From Cyanophora paradoxa CCMP329 (taxonomy: Eukaryota > Plantae > Glaucophyta): DNA of 64,000 bases. Made by a program: the position numbers and the translations under genes. The notes beneath the pieces are model-generated. The model saw only the letters and a program-made list of their open reading frames with translations. It had not been told where the DNA came from and made no database searches. This document shows positions 31,646 through 59,616 of this stretch, one piece after another. Position 1 is the first letter of the stretch. Each line of letters opens with the position of its first letter. The stretch lies in NCBI GenBank assembly GCA_004431415.1, contig QPMI01000159.1, positions 84,327-148,326 of the forward strand, written 5' to 3'.

Positions 31646-34600
31646 ATGGCGACGACGATCTACAGCCCTTCTGGCTTCCACCGGTGGAACACGTCTCTGA
31701 TCAGCGGCGCGGGCGGATGGGAGCTTCGGCCGCAGTCCGAGCTCCCTCCTAAGCCCGTTTCGCCGGGGACGGTTTTCGGCGAAGTAGCATTTAACGGATG
31801 GACGTGGAACGGGGCCATGTGGACTCCGCCGTACCCACCGCGTACGTCGCCCACCGCCGACGAGCTCCAGGTGCGATTTGCAATTGACCCGCGTTGAACG
31901 ATTCGACGAGCTCAAGAATTCTCGCATGATCATGAGCTCGCGCATGCAGGCGTGGTTTAATTCGAGCGGAGGTACTAGTACTGTTGTAGCTATTTCGACG
32001 GACAAGACGACGTTGACTTTGACGTCGACGGACTCCACGGCGCCGAATTCGACGGACAGTACTTCGACCGACTCCACGAGCTCGAGTCCGACGAACACCA
32101 CGACCGCGACTCTTGATCAGGATCCGACGGACATCACAGTCCTGCAGCTGCAGCCCTGCGACGAACTCAACGCGTCGCCCGGTGTCAAGATCGAGGCCGT
32201 GCGTCTAGATCTCCCCTTGAATTATATATATCAGTGTATAGTGCATAGATAAACGGCGAGCTTCGTCAAGCGGCCGCGGTTGACGCCTCATGACCAACGC
32301 CGGTGCCGCAGGGAGCGTACGAGCTTCCTTTTACGGAGGTCGGCTCTATCCGCGTCGACTCGGCGGTCTACAATGGCACCGGCCCGTACACGGCGCCTGG
32401 CACCAAGACCCAGCAATACACGTGAGCTCTTCATCATTCATAATCATGGCACGACCATACTAGTACAAATGAGAACCTGAACGTGCGCGTGGCTAGGTAA
32501 AAAAAAGGAGATAGTGTGGGTTCCAGCCCACCCACCTCTTTCTCACCCCCACCCCTCCAATCCCACCAAAACCACCCACTCCAACGCCTTCCCAACCACC
32601 ACTTCCAGACACACTCTCACAACGTCTACCACCCCCACCTCTCCAAGCCAACCAAACAGCATCCGCTAGGTAGTATCTAACGTCTAGTCCGATCGATCTT
32701 GCAAAAGATATAGCAGTGCTTTTAGACGGGAGCGTCAGCCAGAAGGCTTCCTGCTCTTCGAGCCCCAAAGCGTCGGTCTCAGAATCATCTTCAACATCAT
32801 TTAGACGTTAATTGTGTGTACTTTGAATCTAAAAAACAAAGAGGTTTCAAGGTTTAAGCTACACGTAATTACTATATCATCGAAAGCTAATTACATACTC
32901 GAGTTCAGGTTCTAGCTAGACGCTAATTATTCCCAACGATGACGTAGTCCAAGTTTAGTGAAACCACTTAACAATGGTTTGTATTCGATCGACGGCCCGA
33001 CAGGATCAGCGCTGCTAGAGGCGATGCGCAAGATCGATGTGTTTGCTACAGGTAATTCGCTAGCATTCTCATCCACCTCGGGGATTGCGACGATCGTCTT
33101 AGCAGGAACAGCAGATGATGGAGGAGAAAGCTTTTTTTCAATTTTGGTTTTAACAATCGGTTCGTTTAAAATCTTGTTTTCCATTTTAGTCTCAACCGCT
33201 ATACCAGCAATAAGATCACCAGCACGCTTCTTTGAAATTGTTTTCAACCCAGTCACTGTTTTTATGAAATATCTGCTACGATTACCAGTCTCTGATACAT
33301 ACAGCGGACCATCGTCAGTATCCTTCAGTTTACTAGTTTTGCTTTTCTTTGTCCGCGAATTTGGGATCTTATCTAGAATAGCGTTTTCGTCAGCAGTAAG
33401 AGCAAAATCGATAGATGCTCCCTCACCACCAGCTGTCCGACGAACTAAAGGATAAGATTCAGTATCACCGCTCAAAAATTCAATATTATTCTTTTTATTG
33501 GGTGAGTTTGTAAGTTTTCTAGAAGCCGCGCCTAAGAAGCCACTTGTGCTCCGCACCATTTGTTTTAAATAAGGAACAGAAAAAAGTCGACAGACAAGCC
33601 AAGCGCATTCGCGAAGTGAAATTAAGCAAAACTGCGATCAAACGGATGAAACTCACTATCTGTGTTTCTGATTGACGAGCGAAGTGATGCCTTTGTGTAT
33701 GAAGAATCTTCAATTTCGAACTCGATAACGAATGAGAATTCAGTGTTAATAGCTGCAGTAAATCCATTAAAATAACGTATTGACACATCAAGTTGCTCTA
33801 ACTCAGAATTATGATCGACGGAAACAGGAACACGTTCATCAGATGTATATTTGATTAGCTCTCCAAATTTTGCATCGATATGAATCTTTGCCAACGATGT
33901 GTTTGACCAGTTATTTATGGTGTGAATCGAACCACGAATCTGATCGATATGTAAGAAGAGATAAGTATGGTAAAGAAGATCAACAGGTATATCGCCAACG
34001 ATAGCAAACGCATAATCAACAGCATCAACTGTGATTGGAGTATCCAGCTGTTCTGCGGAATCTGTAACAGCCTTTGTGAATCCGAGCAGATTTGCGAGTT
34101 CAAGAGTGGAAAACGTTAGAGTAAACTCCGATTCACACAAGATGGTGATTTTCATTGACACATCATCAAAAACTGTTAAGAACTTTCGCTGGTAAGTACT
34201 CCCCAAATAACTGTATTGTTGCGTTTTCAAAAGAACATTCATGTAATTCGTAAGAGATGTTGGTGTGTATGATCCAGCTCGAAATAGGTTCGATCTGGTT
34301 TTAATGACGTTGCTAGGATCGAGCGTAATGGTTGTTATTGAAGCATCAGCAGCAAGATTATACATATTATGAAAAAGTTCTAGCGATTCAATTCTAGCCG
34401 ACTTCACGTTTGCTAACGCCCGAGGTAGATTAATTTTGAAATTCGAGGACATGCCTTCGAACCGATCTCTAGAATCAACATTTACGCGGAGTTTCATCTT
34501 TACAATATACGTGAAAATATTCTGTAATATAATATCAAATGGCGCAAGCAGGAACTACTCTGAAAGAGCTCCTAACAACCAAAGGATCGAACGAGCTATA

Positions 34601-37600
34601 TCTATCACCAGGTCTAACTGTCGGTGTTAGTCCAAAGTTTAAGCCTTTCCTTGAGACGATCCGTCCGCGAGGTAACTCATACGGATTCGCACAAACTGCC
34701 GCTTTCGATCTTCCGCGCAAGCAACTTCTAAACGGTGTTTCCCTATATTTTAAGGTCACAGTCGCTGGTGGAGCTGCCGCCTCGGTACTACCAAATGGAG
34801 CTGGTGCATTTATCGAAAACGTACGCTTTGTTCATGGTTCATTCAAGATGGTGATACCCGGAGACTGGCTTACTGTGAACGCGCTAATTGATAATAGCGT
34901 TGCATCCGCCCAAGCTTTTGCTAGCAGCTACGGCTTTGGAAAGGACGCTGCTCTTGAGATTCTCGATGCCAGCCGTGAGTACGTGTTAAAGATCCCATCA
35001 CAGCTTTGGGACAATTCATATTTCCCTCTGCTAGCACTTGCGGATATGCCAACCGTCGAGATTGACTTCCGTTCGGCTGGTGTGATTGGAACTGTTGCTG
35101 ATGCTATTGCGACTCTAACGGATTGTGCCCTGGTTTGTCAGTTCGTGAATATTCCGTCCGAAGAGGCAGAGTCTATGCTAAAATCTGCGAACGAGTCTGG
35201 CGGTATTAGAATTCCCTTTACTGAAATCATTTCAAAGCGTTCGAGGCAACTTAAGACCGACGACGCAGGAAACGCGGTTGAAATCTCGCTTGCTAATGTC
35301 AGCGGTCTTGTGCACGCAATTTTGATGACCGTGCGAAATGCGAATCACCTGGGCACACGGAACCACAATTCATTTGCTGGCAATGGTAACGCTTTGAAGA
35401 TTGATTCGTTTGAGATCATGCACAATAATCGTACTCTAGACATCAGCAATAAGCCAATCTCTGGGTTTGTTTCTAGCTGCTATCACATTCCAACTCAATA
35501 CCGCGGCGCAACCACTGGCAATTCAGCCCTTGGCTTCGAGGACGGAAATGTCTATGGGATTGTGCTTTCGAAATCTGGCAAAGACTCACTGCATAACGCT
35601 GTCCTCGGCTACACAGACTTCTTTAATTCCAGCAGCAGCTACTGCTCGCTAACTGTGACCGGCTGCACAAACGCAGCGCCAGCAGTTGTTGACTTCCACG
35701 TCCTGCGTCACAATGTTCTCGTAATTAACTCGTATCAAATGTCAACTCTAAAGGTAAGTAACTTCTAGATGGATATCAAACTGTTTGATCCTACAGAAAT
35801 AAAACTGCCTAAACGGTTCTTGTTTGTCGGCCCCACCAACTCGGGCAAAAGCACCTACGTAAAACACGTATTAAATGCAGTATCAAATCAACTAGACGAT
35901 ATTTACGTCTTTAGTACAACAGCATTTACTGGACAGTGGGATGATACGACTCGCAAGAGCAATATTTACGAAGAATGGGATCCGGTTTCGGTTGAGAGTC
36001 TTCTAGAGCGTCAAAAAGAAAGACGACGCAAGAAAGATGATCGCAAGATTGCAATTGTTTTAGACGATTTACTTGACAATGACCTAGTAAATGTCCACAG
36101 TGACAGACTCATGCAAAAGCTATTTACTTCTGGCCGTCATTATAACACCACCCTTTTCATATCGACTCAACGTCTTTGTGGCATCAGTCCGACGATTCGG
36201 CGAAATTGCGAATATGTATGCTTTTCGTCAATTCTATCGAATATTAAAGAGTTCGATTGCGTCTTTGCCGAATACAACGCCGGAGCGAGTCGAGCAGTTT
36301 TAATGCGTCTTTTCCTTGAATGGGGTCATTCGTATCAGGTTTTGATATTTGAAGCCGCGACCGTGGACCGCGTCTACTCTGTTGATAAATCTTCTGGAGA
36401 TTTTTCGGCTCTATTGCGCTTTGTACACGCAAGAAAGCGGCCCGGTCAAAAGCCGGTAACCAATCCTGTCTAAGCAACCAAGCTGTATATTCTGGACGTG
36501 CTGAGGCAATCCACAAATATGAGGATCCTTTGTAAATGCCAAAGCTGATGCAGTGGCAAGGTGAAAGTTGTGATCTACCCGGCCAACATATTTCTAAATC
36601 TTCTTCAATATCCATCAAAAAGATAAAGGGTGTTATTCCTTCAATTAAACCGTGATTTCGATGTTTGATCTTTATAAGCATCTTCGAATGAATCATAATA
36701 ACCGATTATCTTCCTGCAACCATTGATTTTGGTTTCTGCTTTCCATTTATCGGTTCGTTTGTCAAGGGAAACACGGACATAGTGGTTGGTGGGTCGGTGG
36801 ATTCTCCTCCGGCAATGTTTCAGTAGAAGATACTCAATGTGTTGCTGGATTGCAAAGGCAACGTATATCGGAAGGTTGATATCGGTCATCTCTGACTTTT
36901 TCGTTACATCTACAGATTGCAATATATTTATGGCATATTCACGCGCTTCTACCTTGAATTCTCTTTGCGTAATATCCAGCGGGTTTGGCGCCTGCTCTGA
37001 GCAATGGTTCAGCAGCAATTTCGAGTTTTTTTAGCTCACGATCCTTCAGGTTTTGACCCGCATACGTTTTCGTTTCAACGAGACCCTCTCTCCGAAGCTG
37101 ACGATCTTGCTTCGATCTAGCAGTCGCTCTTTCAATCTTAGACTGGTCAGGTAGTTCTTGTGGCGCACGAATCTCGGATGGTTTCACACGTCTAGAAATT
37201 TCCACACCTTGCTTTGTAATTAACCTAACACGGTTCTTATCAACGCCAGCAACAACGTAGGTCTCTTTGCTTGGTTTCGCCAGACCCTTTGCGAACACGC
37301 TTGGCTTAGGTTCAAGGATCTGCACCTCCGTACCAGGTTTAGGCATATTTGTGTTCTCTCGTTCAATATCATTCTGTCGCTGACGAACTTGATGTAGCTG
37401 TTCGGCTACCTGTGTATTTTCACGCATCCACGTTGGTGATCGCTCTTCACCAAATGCACTGTGTGCTGTTTCATTGTACGCCTTCAAAATCGCAGGCAAG
37501 CGGGAGAGGAAATGCGGGGAGCCGCGTGCCTCTGTGTCGGCCTGGATCAATGCTCGCAATGTCCTAGCGAACCTGTCGATAATTCCAAGTTTGTTACCTT

Positions 37601-40600
37601 TAGAAATGTGGTCATCTTTGGCAACATCAGTATGCATTTTCAACGAGTTATCCTCGGCCATTGCCCGAATTGCTGCTGTGTTAAAACCGTTGTCACCTGA
37701 AAATCCCCATATTCCAGGTAGCTGCTCGATCATTTTTGGAAGCTGCTTAAAAGTCTCGAGCTTACGGACCACAGCAAAGCGGGTTGCAATTTCGACCGCT
37801 GCAAACAGGCGATACCTCCCAATAAACAATACATCAATTTGCCAAGCTCCAGGTGGTGCTGTTATCGTGTACATTCTTCTAATTGTCACACACATAAAAG
37901 TTTTTTGGTGGATATCGCGTGAATATGCCTTAAAAAGATTGTGATTGTGATTAATAATAAAGTGATATTGTAATGGAGATTGAAAACTGTTTGGCGCGCA
38001 AGCGTGGTCGTCCTCCAAAGTCTAAGTCTCCGGAAGTAATAGAAGAGATGAAGAAGAAACGATCAGCAGCGGTAAAAGCTCGTTATCATTCAGATGAGGA
38101 ATTTCGTAAGCGCAAGCTCCAAGCGACGTATGAGTATCAGGAAAGAAATATTGACCGCAAACGGGAGCAGTGCCGTAACTATCGACGTCGGCAAAGACAG
38201 TTGCTTCTAACTTTATTGGAAAAGTTTGGTGCTCAATCGGTTGAGGTAGTTTCAGCAGCCTAATGTTTGGAGGTTCGCTGCAAACTTCTTTTTTCAAATA
38301 CGTGTGCGCCAGTGACCCAGAGCCAAAGTTTCAACGCCATCATCACATAGCCAACGTTTTGTGTCTAGCGGATGAAGTGCCTGTTTTGAAGTTTCTTGCA
38401 CGTAAACCCGATGTTTCTTTGAGCGCATCCCTCGAATTCCATTCACTTCGCATGATAAGTATTTTTTCTGTCCATCTACATCTTTACCAAGTACACAATC
38501 AATATATCTTTCACGTGTAAGCTGGTCGGCAAAACTTTTAGAAATTCCCTTGCAACGTCTTTCTTGCTTACCACTGTCGATCTGATACCAGTAACTCTTT
38601 GGTCGGTTTGCGATGAATTCTACCATTTGCTTGCCATTGCACTCATCTTTGAAATTGCCAAGGGCTGTCGATTTTTTCTTCATGGTAGCGATTTCTTCCT
38701 CCGACATTCCAGCAAAAAACCTGTGTGTATCTGGGTATTTGCTAACGTCTAGAATATGACTTATTTTTTTCAGATCAGCGTACAAATCATCTGTCTCAAT
38801 TCTAAGGATCAGTGAATCCGTATCAGTTGCGAGCAGTTTTACCCGCTGGCCCCAGAGCGGTTTTAATTGCTCGTAGTACATTTTAAACATGTGCAGTTTT
38901 GACATTTCCAAAACGCTGAATCCGCTGTATATCGGTTTGTTTAACTTAACTTGCGATTTACGTTTAGAGATGAATACTAGATCCTCATCATATTTGACAA
39001 TTTGCTTCAACAAATTTGGCTGTGCGGCGATTTTTGACAGACGATCCCCATCAGTCACAAGCTCAGCGTCACAATGCTTTCTAACGTTTTCCATATTTTT
39101 TCCATATAATGCATTAGTCTTCAGCTTGAATAGATCTCGCACATGATCAAACGTTGCAGCTTGACGCATTTCGGCATTTTTTTCCACATACGGTTTCATC
39201 CAAGCACACTGCTTGTACATAATAATCCGATGGATTTTGCTCACGACAAGTCCATGGGCACGGTAAAACTTGAGTAATCTTCCGTCCACAACGTATTTCT
39301 TCAATGGAAGCAGGCATGGAATAAGCTTTCGCGTCTTCATTTGAACACAATCCTTATTAATCATATCCTGTTGTAATGTCGACAACATCAATGGCTCGAC
39401 ACTCATTGCTACTGGGGCGATGGGGTAATCACTAAATTTCTCGTGAAGCTCATCTGGAATGTAAGCATCAATTTCAAGCGTTGCTCCTATATCACCATCA
39501 TAATCGAAACCATCAAGGTCAAAGGTTTCTGGATCAACCCATTTAAAATCTCCAATCGGATGTTTTTCCAACATTGCATATCCATACAGTGAGTTTGCAT
39601 CTATATAGAACAGATATACTGATGGTTTGGATGGATCATAATCAACCATGTCCTTATTGTTCGCTTTTGCATATCGATTTGACACCATTGAAATGCCACC
39701 ACGAATACCAGTCTCGAAGAATCTGAACATATCCTCTTGACCCTCATGCAACAGCTGTAATTGTCCACCTGTATATTTTAGAGCAGCATCCCAACTGAAA
39801 CCTGGCAGACTCATGTAATATGCAGGATCTATGCCATCTGTAGCGCGAGATGTTTCCCGATATGCTTGAAACACGTCTGCTAGTAACGTTATATCCAGCT
39901 TCATATAAGCAATCGTATATTCTAGCAGCGTCTTACATTTTAGTTTTTTCCAAACCTTTTGTGCGTGCTCGTAATCTTCAGGTTTACACTTTTCGTTTTT
40001 CAAGTCATTGTTAAACGACTCTATTGAAGGTAGTTTCCGATCTGCGAGTCGTTTCCACGAATTTACGTAGCTGTACGGATAGATGCCTTTGCGCGTCATC
40101 AGATTAAATGTTTCCAAATCGGGACATAACTCGCGAGTTTGCTTTTTCAGATGATCTGGAAGCGATGCCGCTAGCTTTTCGAGCGTTGCTGATAGATGTT
40201 GCATGCTGTCGCGGAATACGTAAATGCCGTATTCAATTTGACTCATTTTCTCGGAGTTTTGAAACATCACTTCGAAACGATTTGAAAGCGGTGTCTCAGA
40301 TTTCTCGATCTTGATTTTTTCTTTAACAAGCTGGTTCTTGATAAATCCTGGAACTCGCTTCTCATACTCCTCAGCAGTTATGCTCAGTTTGTTCATCGTC
40401 CATTCCCTCACGCTTTGAGTTTGATATGTCTTCTCAAGACGTGCTCGGGTTGCTTCAAGTTTTTCATTCAACTTTTTCTTAAATTCAATATGTGCGGCTT
40501 GTCTTTTTACACTTCCCTTTGCAATTGCGCGGATCAGCAAATGCGAATCGAAACCCCGAGCATTGTGTGCTAGCAAGAAAACGCGTTTTGATTTACATCT

Positions 40601-43600
40601 CCTTCGGTTGCAACCACAGCAAGCAGCACCTTTGAAATCACCATTATCGTGATCGTGGTCCCAGACCTTTTTGATCTTCTCGCTGAATTCAACGTTACAG
40701 ATATAGCAACTAGTAGCTGAATCAAACGTTTGTTTTGCATCATCTGTTTTTATCGCTGGTACCGATGCATTTAGCCCTTTCTTTAAAGTTGGTTCCATTG
40801 AATCTAGCCATTCAATGAACCTCTCCTCGCATCTTCGACCGCTATTTACATGCCAGTATTTTGTATCATCATTGCCTGTGATCAAGCAACCGACGACAGC
40901 AGGTATTTGACACGCAATTTCATCTGTCTTTCCATTTTTCACAGAGTTCGTAGACATTGCAAGTGTTTCAAAATCATAGGCTCCAACATATCGTGCCGTT
41001 ATCGTATTCGCATGGTTCAGGAATTTCAATGTTGAACGGTCGGGTTTTGGAAGCACATCACGGCCATGTTCGTCTCGTTCGAGGCATCTGTCTTCTTCGA
41101 TGTGTTTCTGAAGAGCATCATCACCGCGAAATCCTTTTTGACAAGCGAGACAATAGCTGCGTGCGTTCTTGTCAATTCCAGGACGTGCAAACATTCGGCT
41201 CACGTTCTTGATCCAAACGAAATGGCCATAGCTACCTTCACCAGTCACGTATAGCAGAGGAATAGCTTCGCGGGCCGCTGAGATATAATATGGAGTGATG
41301 TCTTGCTTTTCATTATCAGCCACATACACACATAAATTCAGATTGTTTGCCTCTTCAAACCGACGGAATATCTTTGAATCAAGCGGGACAGGATAACTGA
41401 GCATTGATGTGTCGATCGTACTTAGGTGCTGTCTGTACTTGGCAGCACGTTGAGCATGCCGATCGATTGGGAACTTTGCGGATAAAACTGAATACGTAAA
41501 ACACATATTATCTGGTGCCTCCACGTTTATGACTGCGTTCTTCTTGCTAATCCATGTTGGAAGTTCAAATGATGCTCCACCAACGGCGCGGACATGTTCT
41601 AGACTTTGTATGTAAAAATACGTCCACGTTTCTAATTCCCAGCTGTCATTCTCCTGTTCTGCTCTTCCATCGATCTCAACACATCTGTCACGCAGCTCAA
41701 CTTCAATGTTTGCACCGGGGAGGATACGGTAGAATTGATCTTCACTGATTTCATCTGTTTTGAAGCGGTTAGTAAAACCTTCTGTGCCATTCTGCCTATG
41801 CTTAAAAATTCCTTTTGCATATACCTTGATTGACAGCCCCATTCGAGATTCATTCGCTGAATTCAAACGTTCGGCTATGAATCGCTCGAATTTTGCCTTG
41901 AATTCTGGTGTGTTCGTCAGGTACGACGCGAGCGATGTAACTCGTAGACCGTTCGGCCTGATGATCGCAGCGCTTTCGAGTGCGTATATTCCATCTAGTG
42001 CCGTCTCGCGTGAACCATCTCCAGCAAGTTCCTCATATGGCAGGTCGGGAAGTTCGTTGAAAAGTGTTACCAATTCCGCTTGGTTCTCAGCGATAATTAT
42101 CTGAACTGTTCTTTCTGAAGCACGTCTTGTTTGACCAACAACAGCAGCTAGCAATGAAAGTAAATCAGCAGTTCGTTGCAGTGTCGCAAATCTTGTTCGT
42201 GACCCTGGTGATGAGATTCTAAGTAATTTGTTTCGATATAGTCCATGAATACGTCTACGATCATACAAATTTTGTGCTAGACCTACAATCTGTTGTTTCA
42301 GTAACGATATTTGACGGCGACGATCAATTTGATTCATTGTGAAAGTGTCGCTAGAAATAAATTTCGGTTGATCAACGCGATCTTATATCACTTTATATTG
42401 ATGCTAAAACCTTTAAGACACAGATATAACCTGAACCTAAACTTGGACTACGTCATCGGTGGGAATAATTACGTGTAGCATAACCCTTGAAACCTCTTTG
42501 TTTTTTAGATTCGAAATACACACAATTAACGTCTAGATGATGTTGAAGATGATTCTGAGACCGGCGCTTGGGGGGCTCGAAGAGCAGGAAGCCTTCTGGC
42601 TGACGCTCCCGCCTCAAATCATTGCTATATCTTTTGCAAGATCGATCGGACTAGACGTTAGATACTACCTAGCGGTTGCTGTTTGGTTGGTTTGGATAGG
42701 TTGTGGGGTAGACGTAACGAAGGATTGGAAGAGAATGAGTGATGGAAGGCGTTGGAGTGGGTGGTTTTGGTGGGATTGGATGGGTGGGGGTGGTGAAGAG
42801 GGGGGTGGGCTGGAACCCCCACTATCTCCTTTTTTTCAGGTACACTGACCCGTACAAGCAGACAAAGACTTTCGATGCTACGGACAGCTACACCGAAACT
42901 GGTTCGAGCGTTTCATAATTGCATCGAATAGCAAACCGGTTGCAGCGGCCGCGCCCGTGGCCAGCTGCGGCGCGCTGTTGGAACCCGAATTTGCAGCTCA
43001 CTCTTTTTCTCAGGCAAATACGTGATTCGCCAGCACGTTACGCCCACTGACACCTTCTATGGCAAGGAGGTCCCAATCAGGTGCGCTTCGTAAGGCTGCA
43101 GCTGCTCGCCGCGAGCTCGAGCATCCTGATCGGAGCCTTGAATTTAATTCGGATGTGTGCAGCGCCAGCACGCACACGCCCACCCCGGCGGAGGACAAGA
43201 TCACGTGGACCCGCGACGAGAAGACAGAGTCTTTCAACGGCACCTCCTCGAGCCAGACCTCGAAAATCCCTTCGGCCCCGGAGCGCCTCCCCGCCCCGGG
43301 CGCCCCCGGCGAGTGGACCCAGGAGGGTCTGACGATCACGAGCACGAAGAACGAGGTCATCACGTACGCGGCTGCGCAGCAGGCCTGCTCCGGCACCGGC
43401 CCCTGGTGCGCATGTGCCTTAAGGTTTCGCTGATGATCACGACGCATATGAGAACTCGGAAATAATTAATTACTATATGAACACGTAGCCTGTTCTAGCT
43501 CTAGATCTCCCCCGCGCTGTCGGCCGCAAGCCGCTGAGTCTACGTATTTTTGCAGCTTCCAGGCGAATCTGTACTCGCTCTCGGTTGAGCAGGCGAAGCC

Positions 43601-46345: not shown

Positions 46346-46892
46346 TCACAGTCTAGATCTAGATCAACGCGAGCTTTATTTGAGAATATTAATATGTGTG
46401 TCTCGTTAATCTTATCTTGCATACGTGTCGACGTCGCAGGGAATCCATTTCGCCGATTTTAATGCTTACCCGCTTCCGCCGAAATTCTACTGCTCGCTGG
46501 GTGGTCACCCCCACCAATTGCGCGACCTTCCCGCGACCATTTTCAATAAGCACATTTTCAGCATCACGAATCTCAGTCACAAAATCACAAATTCGCACTG
46601 AGCCACATTGTATTTTTCAAACATCTAACTCCTCCTTACTGAAACCAATCACAAAAACCTACATATAATCTTCTCTCTAATCCCTTACCATTTTCAGTAA
46701 GCCTTTATTCCGCCTTCCGATCTCTCAGTAAGGACAGTAAGACCCTATTTTTTGCGTAATGTTCCTGATCCTTGTCGAACTGTTTTCAGTAGTCCAATTT
46801 GAAAAATCAAGGTGAGCCCCACCGATAGGTTAAATTAACTTATATAGTGCGTATATCCCCACTTAAAGATTTCCCACTATACAAGTATAAAG

Positions 46893-47216
46893 ATGCCGGG
46901 TAATCAGCTCCCCTTACCTAAAAGTAAACTGTGCAATGTGTGCAAAGAGGTCAAGCCTGCATCGTGGTTCCCTTTGCGCAAGTGCAAGTCGGGAAATATA
47001 ACATTATATTGGAGATGCATAGAGTGCCACCGTGACTATCAAAATGATCACTATCACAATGTCTTAAAAACGCGTCCGAAAATCGAAGTACAATCGAAGA
47101 TATGCCCGGATTGCAAGATTGAGAAGCCTGCAAGCGAGTATAATAAAAAGCAAAGTACGAAGGATGGTCTCTACTATAAATGCCGACAGTGTTATAGTGA
47201 GACTCGGACGAGCTAA
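46893..47216 (+). CDS. Tandem C4 zinc-ribbon protein
   Basis: CNVCKEVKP..F..CIEC and CPDCKIEKP..Y..KDGL..CRQC. Confidence 0.75.
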   Translation: MPGNQLPLPKSKLCNVCKEVKPASWFPLRKCKSGNITLYWRCIECHRDYQNDHYHNVLKTRPKIEVQSKICPDCKIEKPASEYNKKQSTKDGLYYKCRQCYSETRTS

Positions 47217-47457: not shown

Positions 47458-47850
47458 ATGGATTCCCGATACCGCGGCTACCACGTTATGCTCGACTATA
47501 TAACCGAGCCGTTTACTGAGTCCCCGGAGGCATGCGCCGAGTGGATCACAGCGAACCTATCGCAATATATCACAGATCGCAATATGCGCATCGTGCACCA
47601 GCACACATGCATTTTCGATGGCTGTAATTCCCCTCCCGGTTTCGCGATTGGCTTTCTATTAGATGAGTCGCATGCCACAGCTCACTCTTATAGCGACCAG
47701 GGGCTATTAGCGATCGATATCTTTACATGCGGCTCAAATGCCGAAGCGAAGACAATGGGTATAGCACAGGACATTAACGATCTCATACAGGAAAGGCTGA
47801 AAGTGCGAAAGTGGGACTTACAGGTCGAGCAAAGGTTCCCAATTTCATAA
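47458..47850 (+). CDS. speD: Prokaryote-type (class 1b) S-adenosylmethionine decarboxylase proenzyme
   Basis: GYHVMLD, F..PPG..LLDESHATAHSY..G..AIDIFTCG with the E-S autocleavage site; 130 aa. Confidence 0.88.
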   Translation: MDSRYRGYHVMLDYITEPFTESPEACAEWITANLSQYITDRNMRIVHQHTCIFDGCNSPPGFAIGFLLDESHATAHSYSDQGLLAIDIFTCGSNAEAKTMGIAQDINDLIQERLKVRKWDLQVEQRFPIS

Positions 47851-47875: not shown

Positions 47876-48190
47876 TTAATGCTCCTTGATCGGAAACTTG
47901 CCCATTAGCGGGTGATCGAGACCCATGACATACCAGGATTTCATAACGGGATCCCAGCGGGCTTTCTCAGCCTTCGCTTGATCCTTAAATTCATAAGGAA
48001 TATCGAGGTAAACCTTCACGTTTCTTTGATACACTTGCTCATAGCTTAGAGTTTTGAACTGAGAGCATAGAGAGTGATCTTTCTTCGTGACATACCAGCA
48101 TGAATTCTCACGATCCCACTTTCCACCGAGGGATTTCGCAACGTCTTTTTTATCATACGGAATGTCCACGAAATGCTTTTCACCCTCCAT
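47876..48190 (-). CDS. Tandem DUF5710-like protein
   Basis: Two copies of (F/Y).DIPY..KD.AK....WD....WYV. Confidence 0.75.
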   Translation of the reverse strand: MEGEKHFVDIPYDKKDVAKSLGGKWDRENSCWYVTKKDHSLCSQFKTLSYEQVYQRNVKVYLDIPYEFKDQAKAEKARWDPVMKSWYVMGLDHPLMGKFPIKEH

Positions 48191-48229: not shown

Positions 48230-49612
48230 TTATGAACGAGATGACCGAAGAATGCGCGTAGTAGGGGCTGTATAGCTTGCGCTCTGATTCTTGAACGATT
48301 TATACCACCTCTGACTGTTTACCTCTGAGAGCTTCTCAGTGCCGGCAATCGTGAGTTTCGCGAGCTCTCTTAGCGCCCTCTTTGTCTTTTCTGCGCGATC
48401 TTCCAATAATGCGCCTTTTGGAACACTTGCGGCGACATCTATGCCTTCTTTTTGAACCTGCCGGATCGAAGCTGCCTCTACATCAGCCGCTAAAATAGCG
48501 TTGCCTGATGGCTCGACCACAGCTTCGACCTCTGTAATGATCTGCAATTCGTGCGGCTTAAAAAGCTTCGGCATTACGTTCCCCGCTGCATCTTGCACCT
48601 CTATCGCGTTTCCTCTCCTTCCCGCAATTTTGTAGACCTCTCGGCTATACCTTTGGGTCGCTCCTTTATCAAACTTTGATCTCGGCAATAATACACGGAC
48701 GTGGAGACCCGGCTTAAAGTCGCTGAATATATCCTTTACGATTGTGTTCTTCTTTGAAATAATAGCCGCTCGGATCCGCTCCATATCAGAAAGCTTAACA
48801 TCTGCGGGTTTCATTCCTATGGTTCTGTGAATGGTGTTATTATAATTGAAAACGAAGTCGTCCAATTTGTCCATGAATCGAACTGTATTATAAGCGACAC
48901 AGTAATTGTTTATCATCGTTTTTAAGGTCAAATGAAAGCGATTCATTATTCCCAGAGAAGTGTGATCTCCGACCTGTTTAAAGCGGTGTTCTATTCCATT
49001 ATTTTTAACGACCTCCTGAAACTCCTTCGCGATGAATTCCGAACCGTTATCTGTCTCCAATCGAATCATCGGAGCCGGGAGCTCTGTGAGCATCTCCGCA
49101 AAAGCGGCGGCAACACTTGCGCCCTCCTTATTCTTTAACTTCTTGGCATATGCTTTTCGGCTCGTCATCTCAATGAGAGTAAGGACTGCAATGTAGCCGG
49201 AATTATAGCTGCCATATGAGAGATAAAAGATGAGATCCGCTTGATAGCACCACGGCGGGGCTGTGATGGGAATAAAAGCGGTTTGGGTCGGTGCGGGGGG
49301 CTTCTTGTTGATCTGCATAAATTCTTGTTTCGCTGCGACATCTTGCACTTCTTTCAATGTGAGGGTCTTGTCCTCTTTTCTCAGTTCTTCGTATATTGCG
49401 GATGGGTTCTTAAAACCTGTCTTCGGGTCATACATGCGTCGCACGATCTTAGAGGACGGGTTCGCAATGCTAAAAGGAACATCTCCTAATAAATTTGATT
49501 TTGCTTGGCGTTTTGTAATTTTTTGGGGGACTTGCTCAGTCTCAGGAACCGCGATAGGTAGTATGGTAGTCTCCGTCTCCTCGCCCGCTACCCTTCTGAC
49601 GATCCGTGACAT
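48230..49612 (-). CDS. Retroviral-like (rve) integrase
   Basis: YQADLIF, IEMTSRKAYA..LKNK, LETDNGSEF, LGIMNRFHLTLK, YNNTIHRTIGMKP, F..G..VR, YSREVYKI. Confidence 0.9.
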   Translation of the reverse strand: MSRIVRRVAGEETETTILPIAVPETEQVPQKITKRQAKSNLLGDVPFSIANPSSKIVRRMYDPKTGFKNPSAIYEELRKEDKTLTLKEVQDVAAKQEFMQINKKPPAPTQTAFIPITAPPWCYQADLIFYLSYGSYNSGYIAVLTLIEMTSRKAYAKKLKNKEGASVAAAFAEMLTELPAPMIRLETDNGSEFIAKEFQEVVKNNGIEHRFKQVGDHTSLGIMNRFHLTLKTMINNYCVAYNTVRFMDKLDDFVFNYNNTIHRTIGMKPADVKLSDMERIRAAIISKKNTIVKDIFSDFKPGLHVRVLLPRSKFDKGATQRYSREVYKIAGRRGNAIEVQDAAGNVMPKLFKPHELQIITEVEAVVEPSGNAILAADVEAASIRQVQKEGIDVAASVPKGALLEDRAEKTKRALRELAKLTIAGTEKLSEVNSQRWYKSFKNQSASYTAPTTRILRSSRS

Positions 49613-49631: not shown

Positions 49632-52600
49632 TTATTTTTTGCTGCAATTGCACCCGTGATGCGCGAGTTGACAATTGTCTTTAAGATGTGGGCGCCTGTT
49701 GTTTATGCGATCCACGACGAGCCTGTAATTCGGATCTTGCGGCTCAATCGGAATCGGAAGGGAACAGATCGCACATGCGCCCTTCTGTTGCTTCTTGCGC
49801 TCTAATATCCACTCCGGCGTAATATAATCCGCCTCGTCGAAATCGCGCCCGGCGCGCTGATCCTGGCATTTATAACCGCGGATCTTCGTTTTCAGATATT
49901 CGATGTAGTCGCTCTTTCCTTGGAACTTGTGAATCGGTGTATAAATCAGCACAGTGGACAGATCGCGGTTACGAGTGAGAGCGGTATAGAACCATTCGCG
50001 AGTGGTATAGCGGAACGTAGCCTCACAAATGACAATGCCCGAATCAAGTGTGAGACCTTGCGTTGAATGACCTGTTCCTGCATAAGGGAGAGAAAAATGT
50101 TCTAACATCGCGCACGGAACCTCGAACGTGACGCCATCGAAAACGTCAGTTAATGTGACCATTTGCTTGGTGATTTTGGTGATTCGATAGGTGTAATTTG
50201 TGTATGCATTAATAGACTCACCCTCAGACCGCGAAATGCGTAGATACCTGCGACAAACGACTTCCAGACCCTTGTAGAATTTGATTCCGTTGACCTCTAC
50301 GGTTGCAATATTTACTTTTCGTCTATCGTGCATCAGTTTGTTATAGGCTAAGGTCATTTCGTTTCTGTAAGCGATGCCAAAGTAGCCGTCGGAATAGCGT
50401 TAAGATCATTAATTGTCGGTAAGCCGTATTTCGAGATAATCTGTGCGGCTTCGAGTCGTTTTCGAAGAGATCCTCTTAATCGCCCGAATTAATTCACGGT
50501 CTGTCTCCTTCTTGTGCCGCTTGTTAATGCGTAGACTCAGGACGTTAGGGAACATGCTCTGCACAGCGCGCTTATAGTAGCCCTTGCGATCAGAAACCGA
50601 TAGCTCATCATTAATCGTTCGTTCTGATAGGTATCGCCATTAGCCAAATATTTGATATCCGGATAGCGATCGATAAACGACTTGATCTTAGCGAGATCTT
50701 TTACAGAATACGCGAATATCTCGTCGAACATAATGTGGCTGAACTCGGAGACAAACGCCCTCTGGTCTTTTTCGCTCATAGCCTCTTCGTAGGTCTGATC
50801 ATTTGAGACACGGATCCCGAGAACATTATACAAAGTGCGAACGGTAATATTCTCGATTCCGCGGACTTTGAGAGAGTCCCTCAGCTCTGCGCACTGTTTG
50901 TTATAGGGCAAATGACTAAGCAATTTGACTTTTGAGAGGCAAAGCAATTAATACCGAGGGTCGACTTTCCACTTCCGGGCATGTCAGCAAGGACAAGCAT
51001 ACGATTATGGAGCTCCGCAACCCAATTAAAGCACTCCGGATTAAATTCGTCCCTCAGCGAGAACCGGTTAATGAGTGTCTCGGGATCCTGAAATTCGAGA
51101 GTTACACCCCGTGGTGGGCGGAGTGCATTCTCAGGGCATCTTTTCCCGGGAATATAGCTGAATTTGCCCATGTTCTCAAACGCATTTCGGTCGAACTCTT
51201 TCTTACTTGTCCATGAACCTTCGATATATAGACAGTCCGTTCTGATCCCGGCAACCTTGTGCCCGCGCGCTGTCAGGCGCTTGTATTGCGCAAACATATT
51301 AGCACGGTTGCGATCGTAAATATGAAAGTGGATAGGAAGGAATCCGTTAACGAGCTCGCGGTGGGAGCTGATCTTAACGAAATAGATGTGACCTTCGAAT
51401 TCGCTAAGAGTTTTGACACGTTTCGAATTCTTAGGATTGAAAGTAAACACCTCTACTGTTCCTCCGCATTCTTGGGCGAACCTCTCAGCCTCGGCACGGT
51501 TGTAGAACATTTTCGTGGATGTTTGCGAGTCTTGGAATTTGCCGAGCATTCCGATCTCTTTCACTAAAATGTGCTTCTTATCTGTGGTTTGAATGTCGCT
51601 TGACAGCACTTTTTGCATCTCAGCGATCGACGTATTGGGCACCAAATGCGAAGGCTCCGCGACCGCGATAATCTCTATCTTGTCCTTTACGTCCGCCCAA
51701 TGCATGGAGAGAGTGTAGCCTGTCATGAAATTATAACAGCGACCACTCACGGAAAATGCGCGATCCAGTATAATTTCGATTCCATCAATCTTGCGAGACA
51801 TGGCGGCATCATAATCAATATCCTCGTCGTCTGCGAAAGTTGCTTGCTCTCTCTCAAACGCAACGACACGCACGTAGTAGATCGCGTATTCGAGAATATC
51901 GCTTCCCGCTTTAAAGGGAACGAAGTCATCGAATACATTGTATTTCGGAAGATATTGCATGCCTTTCAGTATCGAAGGGTAGCACTTCGCCATATCGACA
52001 GCTGTGTAGGTGGCTTTCGGGTTCGGCTTATAGAAAAAGCCACTTAGTGCGGATCGCTTGTAGTGCGTGAGAATTTCGCGCATGTTCGGGCTGTAATGTG
52101 AGATATTCGTCGCATTTAGAAGCGACTCCCGGAATCCCTTCCCGATTTCACAGACCTTATTATAATACTCCTCTGTTTCGAAATCTTGCTCAATAAAGTG
52201 GTCTGTTGTGCGTGGATCTTTGATAGAGAACATCGAGCCATTGGCTTTGAATGTGATGCTGTCGATCTGTTTCGATGGTGTTAGCTTCACAGCGGGCTCA
52301 TATCGCATTTTCAGGAACGTGAATAGAAGACCTTCCAGACCTTCGCGCCCAGTATAAAGAATGCGGATGAAACTGCGCTCGTCGGGCGATAGTTTTAGTT
52401 GCGTGATCTTTAACAAATCCTTGGATGTGTGCGCGAAGATATCGTGAGTAAGACACGTCGGAATTTTATAGAGTGCTAACGAAGAGGTCGACTTAGGAAC
52501 ATGATTATCGAGCTCTTCGACCTCCATCTTTGCCATGCGCATTTCGAGCGACTTGATGTTATCGTTGAATATATAGATGTGCTTGTTGTGAATCATAAAG

Positions 52601-53529
52601 TGAATATTGCGGGGAAAGATGTTTTTGTTAATTGATTCCGCCGCGAATTTGTGTATTAACTTTCCGTCGACATCAAAGACGCGGAAGCCTGTCTGAATTC
52701 TCTTACAGAATTTCTCGATATGGCGGAGCGTGAGAGCCAGAGAGTCGCCAGGTGTGCGTTCGCGACCGTGAAAGAATTTATAGAGACCGTCGTAGGACAT
52801 AGTTAAGTCAGTATATCGCGGTTTTGGCGCCTCCTGACACTTCTTAATGGACGCTCCCCATGTGGAGATGATCATATCGTAGCCGCAAGCGTTAGATGTC
52901 GATGATTTGGGAAGCTCAATAATATCTTCGAACTCAGACGCGTTTGGATTTAATGTGTAGTCTGTGAATTTGCTCATAATCGCGGTGCATCGCATGCTGT
53001 CCATTAGCTCCTCATCCAGAAACGCATAGCGATTGCCAGGGATAGCACCGGCTCCGTCATCTTCGACACCTTCGTCCCCATCGATCACGACCTCATGAAC
53101 AGTTATGGTGTCGAAGATGACGGAGAGAATAGTGCGTTTAATCGCATCCTCTACCGCTTTTAGTTTACCTCTCTGCTGCTTCGCTTCGAGTTTCGCTTCT
53201 TTCGCCCGTTTCTGTTCTCGTTTGCGATCGAAGCGCTGTAAACGCTTCGCCTCTTGTTCTTTTTGCTTTTGCTTTTCTATATTAACTTGGGTGCGAGCGG
53301 CACGCTTTTCTTTCCGCTCTGCCCTGCGGAAAACGCGGGGATTAATGATGCCATTCAGAGTATCCCGAATGTCGATCAGCGTTTGGAGCTTGGGCTTCCG
53401 ATTCATTGTGTTGTGCATCGCCCAATGCGCCTGTTCTTCGGTTAGCAAATCCTGACTCAATCCCTGCATAATGTATCCGATAATTTCATCCCGAACATTG
53501 TTAGCGATTCTGTTGGTTGCGCGCGGCAT
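49632..53529 (-). CDS. Frameshifted fusion: divergent PolB core + superfamily 1 helicase + C-terminal HNH/Zn domain
   Basis: AVDMAKCYPSIL, K...V..IGMLGK, GIRTDCLY; PGSGKS, FDEI, NGDTYQ, TGHSTQGLT, FYTALTR; CAIC..VDRINNRRPH..DNC..GCN; spread over three frames. Confidence 0.78.
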
Positions 53530-53697: not shown

Positions 53698-54111
53698 CTA
53701 CGAATTTTTCGCGTTCTCGACCACATGCTTTCGGGGTCTTCCAGCGGGCTTTTGCGGCTGAGGTTTAGCGGGCGGATTCAGCTTGCGTTCCGCTCTTTTC
53801 CTTCGTTGGTATTCACGTGCCTTCTCTCGGATTTTCTCCCGATACTCTTCATCGTCTTGGTATCGCTGCTGTTTACGAATTGCGATCTTTTGTAGCTGTT
53901 CCGGTGTGAATATAGTAGCCTCTCCGGCGGCTAATCGCTCTTGCTTTTGTCTCTGATGCTTGTTTCGCTGCCGCTCTGCATCTTTCTCGCGTTTTAGTCT
54001 TAATCTCTCCGCTTTCTCCTCTTCTGTGATCACCTTCTTCGGTCGCCCTGGTCTGCGCTTTTCTTGCTGTGCCGCCATTGCCTCTTGGTTTGAAATCTTG
54101 GGTTTCGCCAT
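53698..54111 (-). CDS. Basic protein with AT-hook-like motifs
   Basis: RRPGRPKK, GRPRK, RYQDDEEYREKIRE; resembles 37973-38263. Confidence 0.7.
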   Translation of the reverse strand: MAKPKISNQEAMAAQQEKRRPGRPKKVITEEEKAERLRLKREKDAERQRNKHQRQKQERLAAGEATIFTPEQLQKIAIRKQQRYQDDEEYREKIREKAREYQRRKRAERKLNPPAKPQPQKPAGRPRKHVVENAKNS

Positions 54112-55554: not shown

Positions 55555-55556
55555 GA

Positions 55557-56423
55557 TTATCTTCTCTTACATTTGATTAACATTTTCTTTTTCTTAGGCG
55601 AAATTTGCGAAAGTTTGGGGATACCTTCAAGCTCACGCTCAAATTTGGATAAAGTTCGACAGACAGTTGTCGAATCTTTGACAGGCGGCGGTTTTGTCGC
55701 TTGCTCCTCTTGTTGTTTGCGCTTCTTTTCTTCAAAAGCCGCCCGCTTGTGGAATTTAGTAAACGGATGGTCATCGATCATATCGGCTTTTTCGACCCAC
55801 CATCGCACAGAATACCCGGTATTATCGTGAATGATCGCTTGGTAGCTATGACAAAACTCTTGGAACATACGTTTGAAACTCTCCTTATCCATGTTGCCGA
55901 ATTCCTCGTGATATGCTTCGAACTCTCGCATGTTTGACCAGCTGAGGAATATGATATACTCCGCATTACTGCGAATGATAGTTGACAGCTTTGTTAATTT
56001 CTGCGATATTAAAGCGACGCTACAAAACGTATGACGACCTTGCGCCATCAATTTATTTAGCAAATGATCGCGCGAAAGATCGATAGTTCCGGACTCCAAA
56101 CAATCGTCGAGCACGATAAGAATATTCTTTGGTTTCTTACCCGCAATGATAGCCTTTTTGCGGGCTTCTATGATCGACTCTACGTATTCCGGTTTCCAGG
56201 TATCATGCACTTCATCTGTAATTTGTCCCCAGAAACCGTTGAAACTCGTAGGACAAAAAACCAGAACATACGAGATCTGGTCTTCGAGTTCTTTGATCAG
56301 CCACTTTAAGAATACCGATTTACCACAATTGGTTTTCGCCAATAGGAGAAATCGTGCGGGAAGTTTCACCCTCTGTTTCGGGTTCCATTCTTCGAGATCT
56401 ATGGGCGTCGTCCCTTTTTGCAT
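55557..56423 (-). CDS. A32/FtsK-like packaging ATPase
   Basis: AKTNCGKS, LIVLDDC, QGRH..LISQ, IRSNA. Confidence 0.9.
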   Translation of the reverse strand: MQKGTTPIDLEEWNPKQRVKLPARFLLLAKTNCGKSVFLKWLIKELEDQISYVLVFCPTSFNGFWGQITDEVHDTWKPEYVESIIEARKKAIIAGKKPKNILIVLDDCLESGTIDLSRDHLLNKLMAQGRHTFCSVALISQKLTKLSTIIRSNAEYIIFLSWSNMREFEAYHEEFGNMDKESFKRMFQEFCHSYQAIIHDNTGYSVRWWVEKADMIDDHPFTKFHKRAAFEEKKRKQQEEQATKPPPVKDSTTVCRTLSKFERELEGIPKLSQISPKKKKMLIKCKRR

Positions 56424-56481
56424 TCTTTCACTATAAAAACAATAGAAAAATAAGACTGAATGTGGTAATCGCACGAATTCC

Positions 56482-57790
56482 TCATGCTGATACTCTGCGA
56501 ATACCATCAGCTCCGATTATCATGATATTATGAGCGAGGGCAATGCACTGAATTTGCATCTTCTGATAAGCGGCACTCGCATACCACTCCTCATTACCGA
56601 CTCCTCCGGCTGTGACACCGTTGAATTCGAAGACCAGATCGAACGCCGATGTGCCTGTGGCATCGATGTAGCCCGTGTTCTCTTGGTTGAGAAGCGACGC
56701 CTTTCCGTTTCCAGCACCGAAGTAAATGCCAGAGAGAGCCGGGTAGCTTGTGCTCTCGGTGAAAATCGCCGCATCATATTTATCTTGAAGTTCGGTCGCG
56801 GCAATCATGAGAGGAAGCGAAGTATTGGAGTAAAGGCGGTTATTGTTGAGTTCCACATAGAAGCTTACGGCGTTGGTTCTGAGTGCACGAGGAGCCAGAA
56901 CCGAGAGAGTTCCGTTGTTAACCTTCGTCTTCGCGTTTTGGCGCACAGAGAATACGAGAGTGTGGATGAGACCCGCACCTGTGAGTTGCGAGAGATTGAC
57001 TCGCGAACCGGAGGCGGTCGGCTGGAAATCTGTGTGGAGGAAACCGATTTCGTTGTAGGGATCGCGATACCAGTCGATTTAACACGGGCAATGGTCTCAG
57101 ATACAACCGCCTCATCGGCATTTACGACCTTGCAGATAATGCGGGGTTTCAGCACTTGAAGGAAGCACCACTGTTTACGACCGAAATATTGCCAACATTG
57201 TTTACATCCTCAATGATACCATCACCAATCGCCTTGAATTCGATTTCGACCACGATCTCAGAGTTCAGAGCGCAAAGTGGGAACATCGCCTTCTCGAAAG
57301 GAGAGGGTAAATCGATTTCGTAGGTTCCACCGACAGTGTTACCAGCGGTTCCGACAAGACCACCCACATAGCGAAGTTTCTTATCGAGTTCGCCCTGTTC
57401 GGTCATCAGTAGAAAATACTGGGTGACGAAATCCTCTGGGACAACATAGCGGAATGAAGCGTGAGAGATTTCAATGCGCTTAATTAGCGATCCAATAACG
57501 CGAAGGTAGCCAGTAGTTCCAGCGACACCATTCGTGAGATCAGTGAGGGTGATCGGTTAAGATCGAGTTGCAGCGCGAGACCATTCAGGAAATGGTAGCG
57601 GGGATTTGAAGACAACTCGGTTGCCGAGAGCGCTGGGTGGCTCAGTGTCGGGGGCGACCAGAACTCGAAGTGGCTTAGTGCCAGAGGACGTTCCAATGAC
57701 CAGCGACTTGTTTAGGAAATAATCCTTGTAGTCATCGGTGGTGAGCATAGATTTCAGCGTTGGGCGCTGGAATTGGCTGTTAGTCTCCAT
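56482..57790 (-). CDS. Major capsid protein, frameshifted
   Basis: TLKSMLTT..SLVIGTS..KP aligns with element 1 MCP TLKELLTT..GLTVGVS..KP; FLNGLAL; FPLCAL..VEIEF; terminal HNIMII. Confidence 0.78.
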
Positions 57791-57829
57791 GAGCGTTTCT
57801 TCTCTTATCTTTGGGATCAGAAAATAATT

Positions 57830-58757
57830 TACAGGGCTCAATAGAAATTCATTTCGGCGGTGCGTCGTAGGTTTCGATTTCAAAAGTGAAATAATGCGCC
57901 CAAACCCCGAAATCTAAGAGAGCGCCATCATGGTCGATGAGTTTAATCGTGAGGCGGTCGAAGATTTTAATTCGCGGAATTCACGAATGAGAGGCACCGT
58001 AGTGGACGTGTCGAAGTGGTAGATATCACCATGTTCGAGTTCCTGTGGGATTGGAATGCGCATGAAATAACCATCGACGTGCTTGTTGACTGAGCGAATA
58101 AACGGCGCAAATTCATCAATATATAGCCAGATCATCGCCGCCGGGTCTCATCTCCACGAGTATAGCCGCGAATGCGTCGATTGAGTGTCACAGTTCCCGT
58201 CCCAGGATTAAACACAAGGAATGTATCGCTTGCAAAAGGGGTAAATGTCTCGTAAACATATAGCTGAATATCTTTGAAACCGAATATTGCGAGTTCTTAG
58301 CGATTGCTTTGCGATTACTGATTTTCTGAGTGTTTCAGGGGAAGCTTTGGAGAACTTGAACCAAAGTTACTATCACTGAAAAACTCATAGATCTTTGAAG
58401 TAGTATTATAGCGGCATTTAATATATTTTCCACCGAAATCTGAAAGGCGAGCTGCTTCGAGTCTTTCTGTGACTTTTGCGGCAAGGTCGTCTTTGGTGTA
58501 AAATCCTTTGGGATTGTGATGGTCACGAATCCGGAATCCGAAGCTGTGACCGAAAAATAGAGTTCCATGCGCTCGATGGTTGCACCAGTCGCGTCTATAT
58601 CGTTTGTCACGGTCGAAAGAACATTGGGAACCGTTGCCTGCACCAGGCGCACAGATTTTACGTTGTCATAGCGACGGGGTAATGTCACTACATACTGGTT
58701 TGGCTGAGTAAACTCCTCATCGCGATCATCGCTCGAAAAGCTCAGGTATTCTTTCAT
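57830..58757 (-). CDS. Minor capsid (penton) protein 1, frameshifted; 3' end approximate
   Basis: FSSDDRD..NQYVVTLP..NVKSVRLVQATVPN; IWLYIDEF..RIPI. Confidence 0.7.
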
Positions 58758-58773
58758 CTTACTATAATAGATT

Positions 58774-59616
58774 ATGAAAAGAATAACAATAAATTGCGAC
58801 AGTAGAGACCTTGAAAATGGCGTGCTGCACTTGAAAACGCGCCTTAATAATGTGCGACGATTTCGTGTGCTATCCGCTGAGATTCCAATAGCTCTTATGT
58901 TGTTCCGCCCGATCAGACAATAACTATAACGCTTCTAAACGAAGAGCCCACAGTAATCCCCGCATCCAAAATGATAGCACCGATTCCCAGCGTAAACGAT
59001 TATTATTACGTCGATGCTGATAACGAACGATATCCAAAAGAGAGAGCTCTAAACAGTGATGCTTTACTCGGATTTGCGGCGGTTCTTTTAATCCTCTCGG
59101 TCTCTTCCCCGTTTCCTATTCTCTCGCTCTGTCTACCAACCGGTTCGTGTTCTCTTCTCCGAATAGCCCGTTTACATTAGAGTCCTCAGACCAGGAGTTC
59201 TGTGATTGTCTCGGCATAGAACCCGGAGTGGTTTACACCAGCACACCAGAACCAGTGCCGGTTCCACTCAGAGATTACCCCAGTCGCTACGCGATTATAT
59301 GCCCGAAAATGGTCGACTTTAATGCAATTCCATATATTTACCTTGATATCGAAGAGCTCCGCCCTTTTACCAAATTCGCAGCGGTTACAGGTAGACAGAA
59401 CAATGTCGACGACTCCTATCTATTGCGAATTCAGATGAATTCGGACTTTGGTAGATATTCCTTTTACCACGAACCGAGCGCAAGCATCCCTTTCGTAAAT
59501 GTCACATCGCAACTCCATTTAGATCGTCTCACAATTTCGCTTCGAAAATGGCGGGCTCTGTTGCGGATATAAACGGTCTCTCATACTCGTTTCAGCTCGA
59601 AGTGATCACGGATTAA
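58774..59616 (+). CDS. Minor capsid (penton) protein 2, frameshifted
   Basis: MKRITINCDSRD..L...LNNVRRFRVLSAEIP; YIYLDIEEL; LDRLTISLR; DINGLSYSFQLEV. Confidence 0.7.

Follow-up and report, generated by a model that had tools for sequence, protein, structure and literature searches.

Two neighbouring polinton-like viruses in Cyanophora paradoxa probably share an old capsid lineage and carry different replicases

Introduction

Can integrated viruses of one host keep a common capsid while exchanging the machinery that copies their genomes? This question is raised by a 64,000-nucleotide stretch of Cyanophora paradoxa CCMP329, a glaucophyte alga (GenBank assembly GCA_004431415.1, contig QPMI01000159.1, positions 84,327 to 148,326 of the forward strand), which was analysed whole and is called the window here. 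Two virus-like elements lie in it, 3.7 kb apart: element 1 at 32,500-42,836, and element 2 from about 46,491 onwards. A first-pass annotation, made from the letters alone, had read them as one virus clade with common capsid, ATPase and integrase genes and a swapped replicase. Having followed up this reading, we consider it likely that the two are independently integrated polinton-like viruses (PLVs) whose capsid and packaging genes come from one old lineage and whose replication genes differ, one lineage most likely having taken up a different replicase long ago. Statements on published work refer throughout to those parts of each source that were covered.

Results

Capsid, packaging and integrase genes common to both elements

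Each element encodes its own major capsid protein (MCP), penton-like protein, packaging ATPase and rve integrase. Compared with a control of 30 shuffles per protein, the MCPs (24% identity over 182 columns, 41 bits against a shuffle maximum of 27.5), the penton-like proteins (25% over 127 columns, 37.6 against 25.5 bits), the ATPases (33% over 210 columns, 121 against 26.3 bits) and the integrases (26% over 317 columns, 78 against 24.7 bits) all scored above chance. This bears out the homology of MCP, ATPase and integrase claimed in the first-pass annotation, as does the gene order, which in both elements consists of a divergent penton gene and an MCP gene directly followed by the ATPase gene. 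The AT-hook homology claimed at the same time is weak: the two proteins have a 22-residue stretch in common (pairwise E 8e-4), while their score stayed below the shuffle maximum. Between the two polymerases no similarity exceeded that of 30 shuffles.

A phmmer search of 1.84 billion proteins with the element 1 MCP returned three matches, namely P0001, P0002 and, weakly, P0003. The two best (E 2e-17 and 4e-16) are closer to the element 2 MCP than to the element 1 MCP; P0001 is 55-57% identical to the pieces of the element 2 MCP, and P0002 is a C. paradoxa protein. Since the two best matches of the element 1 MCP are element-2-type capsid proteins, the sequences make a deep sister relationship of the two elements likely. 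In an ATPase tree of eight sequences, which is unrooted, has no rows omitted and is not a reference phylogeny, both elements and the protein P0004 stood on one side of a 100/99 branch and five distant ATPases on the other.

In a word-indexed search the MCP alone gave no match and the MCP alignment gave only P0001, while the ATPase alignment gave six matches at E<=1e-10. No free-living close relative was found in scans of IMG/VR and of JGI viral contigs and metagenomes. The loci L001 and L002 from these scans were rejected as relatives, as they match by the ATPase only and the three MCP-like genes of L002 are unrelated. L002 itself (IMG/VR, 1587-12232) combines a primase-helicase-like gene, an A32-like ATPase gene and three tandem MCP-like genes, a layout resembling that of Trimcap PLVs.

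Two different replicases

Element 1 encodes a family B DNA polymerase of the protein-primed kind (pPolB), 1347 aa long (38,294-42,337, minus strand). A motif scan located Exo I-III and Pol A-C, as well as Cys/His motifs at residues 276 and 371 that suggest a vOTU domain, and by Pfam and PHROG profiles residues 541-580, which lie between Exo I and Exo II, form an insert of endonuclease VII type. The first-pass description of a canonical protein-primed polymerase thus agrees with the motif set and needs amending for the insert. The polymerase had no PDB sequence match.

The replicase of element 2 (49,632-53,529, minus strand) is frameshifted as assembled. Its first open reading frame (ORF), of 882 aa, contains vOTU-like motifs at 213 and 315, with a spacing similar to that in element 1, followed by palm motif A at 512, a degenerate motif B at 652, a motif C at 763 that lacks its first Asp, and a Walker A motif at 852; the motif scan did not find Exo I or Exo II. 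Motifs A and C follow the order and spacing of a PolB palm. Because palm motifs and Walker A lie in one 882-aa ORF, the fusion is independent of any frameshift correction. Downstream pieces match RecD2, Dda-like and UvrD_C_2 profiles of superfamily 1B (SF1B) helicases and endonuclease VII/HNH profiles, and an atlas search with this replicase gave, as leads only (0.76), helicase and DNA_pol_B_2 clusters. The protein is therefore likely to be a fusion of palm, SF1B helicase and C-terminal HNH domain, resembling the Tlr1-like pPolB-S1H, with the palm assigned by motifs alone. The motif calls in the two replicases are based on general patterns for vOTU and polymerase motifs. The vOTU label follows PMC11161782.

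Element 1 is compact and intact

Element 1 spans 10,337 bp with eight intact genes; its ORFs occupy 8,985 bp, and the widest gap between them is 167 bp. Besides the polymerase gene it comprises a 210-aa ORF (32,927-33,559, minus) with no Pfam, NCBIfam or PHROG match, a likely penton or minor capsid protein of 291 aa (33,622-34,497, minus), the MCP of 409 aa (34,539-35,768, plus), an A32-like packaging ATPase of 234 aa (35,769-36,473, plus; Pfam Pox_A32 E 5e-9), a small AP2-like DNA-binding protein of 82 aa (36,641-36,889, minus; Pfam AP2 E 0.015, also matching part of HNH endonuclease PHROGs at E 7e-7), the rve-type integrase of 318 aa (36,939-37,895, minus; E 1e-20 to that of element 2) and a basic AT-hook-like protein of 96 aa (37,973-38,263, plus) with weak similarity to its element 2 counterpart. 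Two genes next to the MCP gene of element 2 encode homologues of the penton-like protein, for which neither a profile match nor a PDB sequence match was found; the putative penton label derives from gene position and from an N-terminal DSRDR motif taken to mark such proteins. The integrase, whose N-terminus is about 105 residues shorter than that of element 2, had no family match of its own in Pfam and NCBIfam profile searches. At the third acidic position, where Glu would be expected, element 1 has Asp (IIDRF) and element 2 has Asn (IMNRF).

Folded from a four-sequence alignment (mean pLDDT 60, pTM 0.68), the element 1 MCP matched the MCPs of PBCV-1 and of iridoviruses (E ~1e-15, TM ~0.6). 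Against BFVD, MCPs of the type found in nucleocytoplasmic large DNA viruses ranked first, and the first virophage MCP came at rank 28. By this model the protein is a double jelly-roll, the outcome for which a structure prediction had been proposed as a check. The first-pass annotation also saw correctly that element 1 has no adenain-type protease: no protease motif was found, and gaps of at most 167 bp leave no coding room for one. No fibre- or lipase-like gene is among the eight genes.

The terminal inverted repeats (TIRs) of element 1 lie at 32,500-32,871, beginning with seven A, and at 42,466-42,836, ending with seven T. They are about 370 bp long and 89% identical (340 matches, 33 mismatches and 14 gap columns), and a further inverted block of 44 bp lies inside the left end (32,915-32,958). 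Outside the TIRs are the two copies of a target-site duplication, TAGGTA (32,494-32,499, plus) and CAGGTA (42,837-42,842, plus), which match at 5/6 positions. A paralogous host repeat without an insertion, at ~21,870-21,940, aligns collinearly with both flanks, and the left junction is bridged with zero differences by short-read contigs in three DNA-like runs (X1, X4 and X13). The limits first given for the pair missed this left end at 32,500 and stopped short on the other side, where element 2 runs through to the edge of the window.

The TIRs differ at 33/373 aligned bases (9%) and the genes between them are unbroken. Neutral decay matching this divergence would be expected to leave ~14.6 premature stops per 8,736 coding bases; none was observed, and none of 1,000 decay simulations of the element 1 coding bases ended stop-free. 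Probably, therefore, the two ends already differed at insertion, as those of a recombinant between two subfamilies would, or selection has maintained this copy; there is a hint that element 1 is a recent chimeric insertion. In X1, X4 and X13 the contigs over its capsid genes are ~2x deeper than those over integrase and pPolB (33,000-42,300). The capsid genes may in some copies be accompanied by a different, or a more divergent, replication block, although depth is a weak measure that cannot rank genes.

The combination of pPolB, rve integrase, TIRs and target-site duplication that marks Polintons/Mavericks was seen in element 1 only. A Ulp1/adenain protease is lacking in it, no Maverick-Polinton-cluster MCP was among the three phmmer matches of its MCP, and it has neither the virophage-type MCP nor the cysteine protease of virophages. 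Two features of PLVs in the broad sense occur in both elements, namely a double jelly-roll MCP (element 1 by model, element 2 by homology and published HHpred) and an A32-like ATPase (Pfam Pox_A32). The SF1B helicase with C-terminal homing endonuclease of Tlr1-like elements is found in element 2.

Element 2 is frameshifted as assembled

The left end of element 2 (46,491-46,890) has its probable boundary at ~46,491: unique-depth flank contigs end at 46,521 in X1, X4 and X13, and run X21 has a loose end at 46,492. No inverted partner of this end was found within the window, past whose end the element runs. The element 1 TIR had no significant match in the first 920 bp of element 2 (best match 11 nt, E 0.18).

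Its genes begin with a double zinc-ribbon protein resembling endonuclease VII N-termini (46,893-47,216, plus), an S-adenosylmethionine decarboxylase (AdoMetDC; 47,458-47,850, plus; Pfam E 1e-11, TIGR03330), a DUF5710 protein (47,876-48,190, minus; Pfam E 6e-24) and the rve integrase of 460 aa (48,230-49,612, minus; Pfam rve E 2.5e-13). The replicase is followed by an AT-hook protein (53,698-54,111, minus; Pfam AT_hook E 0.003), the A32-like packaging ATPase (55,557-56,423, minus; Pfam Pox_A32 E 2e-10), the MCP in several reading-frame pieces (56,482-57,790, minus), whose relative P0001 is intact, and two likely penton proteins in pieces. Of these, penton B (57,850-58,757, minus) lies beside the MCP and is homologous to the element 1 penton-like protein, and penton A (58,771-59,572, plus), which points away from the MCP block just as its element 1 counterpart does, is 25% identical to the element 1 protein (E 6e-8). 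A patatin-like phospholipase (60,380-61,108, minus; two pieces, Pfam Patatin E 0.002 and 0.02) and a long Thr/Ser-rich coding region (61,200-63,800, plus), likewise in pieces, complete the set; the latter had no family match and is possibly a fibre. The AdoMetDC is of bacterial/phage type, and neither 'AdoMet' nor 'adenosylmethionine' occurs in the covered text of one PLV survey.

Most long genes of element 2 are frameshifted as assembled. Comparison with family contigs gave 123 indel places; all 12 listed are single letters missing from the window, and the missing letter adjoins the same letter in 10/12, against 5.0 expected. This pattern fits long-read consensus error, and decay was rejected as the main cause. 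Because the missing letters sit mostly beside the same letter, the frameshifts are probably assembly error, although the family contigs are collapsed and give no proof for this copy; Bellas et al. (PMC10120064) describe the same artefact for high-copy elements. Over 56,470-62,948, partial matches in three runs reveal a relative of element 2 that is more divergent and has lower depth; a third family of this kind may include P0001 and P0004.

Contig depth in run X13 was 18-20 over the flank, 148-310 over element 1 and 603-658 over element 2. Depth is not copy number, and since it is well above that of the unique flanks over both elements, it is consistent with their belonging to multi-copy families. 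Among the 40 best-supported differences to family contigs listed per element (of 1,352 and 624), 22/28 coding differences were synonymous in element 1 and 18/27 in element 2, with non-coding places, four adjacent changes at 40,505-40,508 and pieces without an assigned frame left out. In two runs guessed to be RNA (X21 and X23), most of each element was without cover, which says nothing on expression.

Host DNA in the window

The opening 18 kb of the window have 71% GC and contain intron-split eukaryotic genes (prenyltransferase, COQ7 and ankyrin); two low-GC islands of 43% and 46% follow downstream. A 4-kb host repeat occurs twice, at 20,500-24,460 and at 31,060-32,450 plus 42,837-45,260 (74-87% identity), the second copy being interrupted by element 1. 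This second copy includes a Thr/Asp-rich tandem array (45,225-45,469), and parts of the repeat are covered by a contig from run X23. The word GGGGGTAC occurs 43 times, against 1.1 expected, between 3,293 and 30,095, always in host DNA and never in either element. On the opposite strand it often reads GTACCCCCAG, which is likely the host 3' splice-site consensus. A direct duplication with 1.3 kb spacing lies at 1-2,062 (92% over 760 bp, with 148-bp sub-repeats). No tRNA genes were found in the window.

Discussion

If the two elements are independent PLVs, the integrase of element 1 would insert the linear genome; on reactivation, pPolB would prime from a terminal protein at the A-run ends and proofread, and the ATPase would fill a double jelly-roll capsid with the DNA, no separate protease being used for maturation. 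Element 2 would pass through the same cycle with a Tlr1-like pPolB-S1H that has lost its exonuclease and unwinds with its own helicase. Neither would need the other, and if there is a helper, a giant virus is the likelier candidate. The nearest MCP matches, the 100/99 ATPase branch and the double jelly-roll agree with the capsid half of the first-pass proposal; the replicase swap is plausible and follows a known general pattern.

Several results weigh against one capsid lineage with a replaced replicase. Identity is low, at 24% for the MCP and 25-33% for the other shared genes, Bellas et al. (2023) placed C. paradoxa MCPs in two clusters, and the small unrooted ATPase tree contains no reference set of PLVs, Polintons or virophages. 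Comparison of the element 2 palm with the element 1 pPolB was at chance with BLASTP and hhalign; hhalign of the palm and vOTU regions of both replicases stayed at shuffle level, with 25/40 shuffles scoring as high. A single-sequence fold of the element 2 replicase (pLDDT 36) gave no palm support, and tblastn matched relatives of neither replicase in the phage collection. What remains of the PolB-core/helicase fusion claimed at first is thus carried by the helicase and HNH profiles and by the motifs in one ORF, and its palm is unsupported by BLASTP, hhalign and fold.

The low MCP identity and the separate Bellas clusters, together with unrelated ends and a lack of free-living close relatives in the IMG/VR and JGI scans, would also suit two divergent PLV lineages that happen to be closest to one another among the few viruses sampled from this host group. 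We regard this as improbable, since MCP and ATPase point to each other far above other matches (97 against 50 bits, and 124-135 against at most 59 bits), and the N-terminal MCP motif and gene order are shared. It is also unlikely, if slightly less so, that no swap took place and that the element 2 fusion arose within the lineage when a pPolB like that of element 1 lost its exonuclease and gained a helicase. Such a derivation is favoured by the vOTU-like Cys/His motifs kept at similar spacing in both replicases, by all other core genes being common to both elements, and by Tlr1-like palms being sister to group 2 polinton pPolBs (PMC5499653). The palm-S1H-HNH layout, however, also occurs in other PLVs such as those of Bigelowiella (PMC5499653), which makes uptake of a ready fusion simpler, and the replicases are without detectable similarity, whereas the other core genes are similar. 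The first-pass annotation had further suggested helper/satellite use of shared capsids. Element 1 has only eight genes and no fibre- or lipase-like gene, whereas in element 2 there are a gene resembling patatin, a pair of penton-like genes and perhaps a fibre; with 3.7 kb between them, a minimal element 1 might borrow virion parts (fibre, lipase or capsid) from element 2, or cross-packaging might occur. Because each has its own full set of MCP, penton and ATPase, with MCPs only 24% identical and ends that do not match significantly over the first 920 bp of element 2, such sharing is unsupported and very improbable; adjacency is unremarkable given that both families are multi-copy. We thus favour two independent PLVs of one old capsid lineage, one of which took up another replicase.

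Both capsid types are already catalogued, so the suggestion of a possibly undescribed MCP group fails. Table S2 of Bellas et al. 2023 (PMC10120064) contains HHpred-checked C. paradoxa MCPs of both types: by eye, gene_58741 differs from the element 1 MCP at 4 of ~370 shown residues (~99% identity), and gene_37737 and gene_3321 are near-identical to pieces of the element 2 MCP. Judged by these viral genes too, C. paradoxa is the likely host. Table S4 gives 366 MCP hits for C. paradoxa in two 'new' unnamed 25%-identity clusters of 272 and 94 (columns ~21 and ~29 by our own count); which cluster corresponds to which element we infer. 'Cyanophora' is absent from the main text, and the passages covered discuss neither gene content nor replicase types; Dataset S1, however, maps five C. 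paradoxa loci and may already annotate these elements. Starrett et al. had earlier pointed out related proteins in contigs of C. paradoxa. In the literature on Cyanophora and glaucophyte polintons, virophages and giant viruses, preprint supplements not covered, we found no paper describing the gene content of the two elements.

Among known systems, element 2 most resembles the pPolB-S1H elements of Tlr1 and PLVs (PMC5499653, PMC11161782) in MCP, minor capsid protein, ATPase and rve integrase, in a replicase of likely vOTU and palm domains, S1H and homing endonuclease whose motif C lacks the first Asp, and in that no protease was seen in the part present in the window. It differs from Tlr1 in its MCP lineage, in a C-terminal HNH instead of GIY-YIG, and in AdoMetDC, patatin and two penton-like genes. 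PMC5499653 reports the fusion of PolB to an SF1 helicase, with an HNH at the C-terminus, as well as the absence of a protease in PLVs and Tlr1, and most PLVs are without one; palms missing this Asp are predicted to be active (PMC11161782), and the fusion in PMC12721341 has the opposite order. Element 1 resembles Polintons with an HNH-bearing pPolB2 (PMC10748475) and MELD viruses (PMC8502044) in pPolB, rve integrase, TIRs, 6-bp duplication, MCP, minor capsid protein, ATPase and a nuclease insert in the polymerase. It is unlike them in lacking a Ulp1/adenain protease, in its A7/T7 ends and in its length of 10.3 kb.

As a pattern, the pair contributes little that is new: conserved capsid modules with changing replicases have been reported across PLVs, and both capsids have been on record since 2023. 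Related capsids with switched replicases are known from cryptophyte PLVs, Powellomyces MELD viruses and nematode Polintons, and from two 2026 preprints (10.64898/2026.10.13.758929 and 10.64898/2026.06.19.733378), one of which describes nucleotide-identical capsid modules with different replicases. The present case is much older and weaker than these. Its value is that of a worked example, in which a host-restricted capsid lineage has a full pPolB and a derived pPolB-S1H in one genome, so that a replicase phylogeny could test descent of the fusion against its import. For protist PLVs a range of 14-40 kb is given; element 1, at 10.3 kb, is smaller, and being compact and intact it lends itself in practice to attempts at demonstrating that virions are made in a glaucophyte. 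A more tentative and rather doubtful reading takes element 1 for a glaucophyte virus that is close to minimal and mobile to this day, with copies that recombine in the host genome: its intact genes would lie between TIRs of two different subfamilies, and its capsid module may pair with more than one integrase-replicase block. If true, a culturable alga would offer a chance to observe module exchange as it happens.

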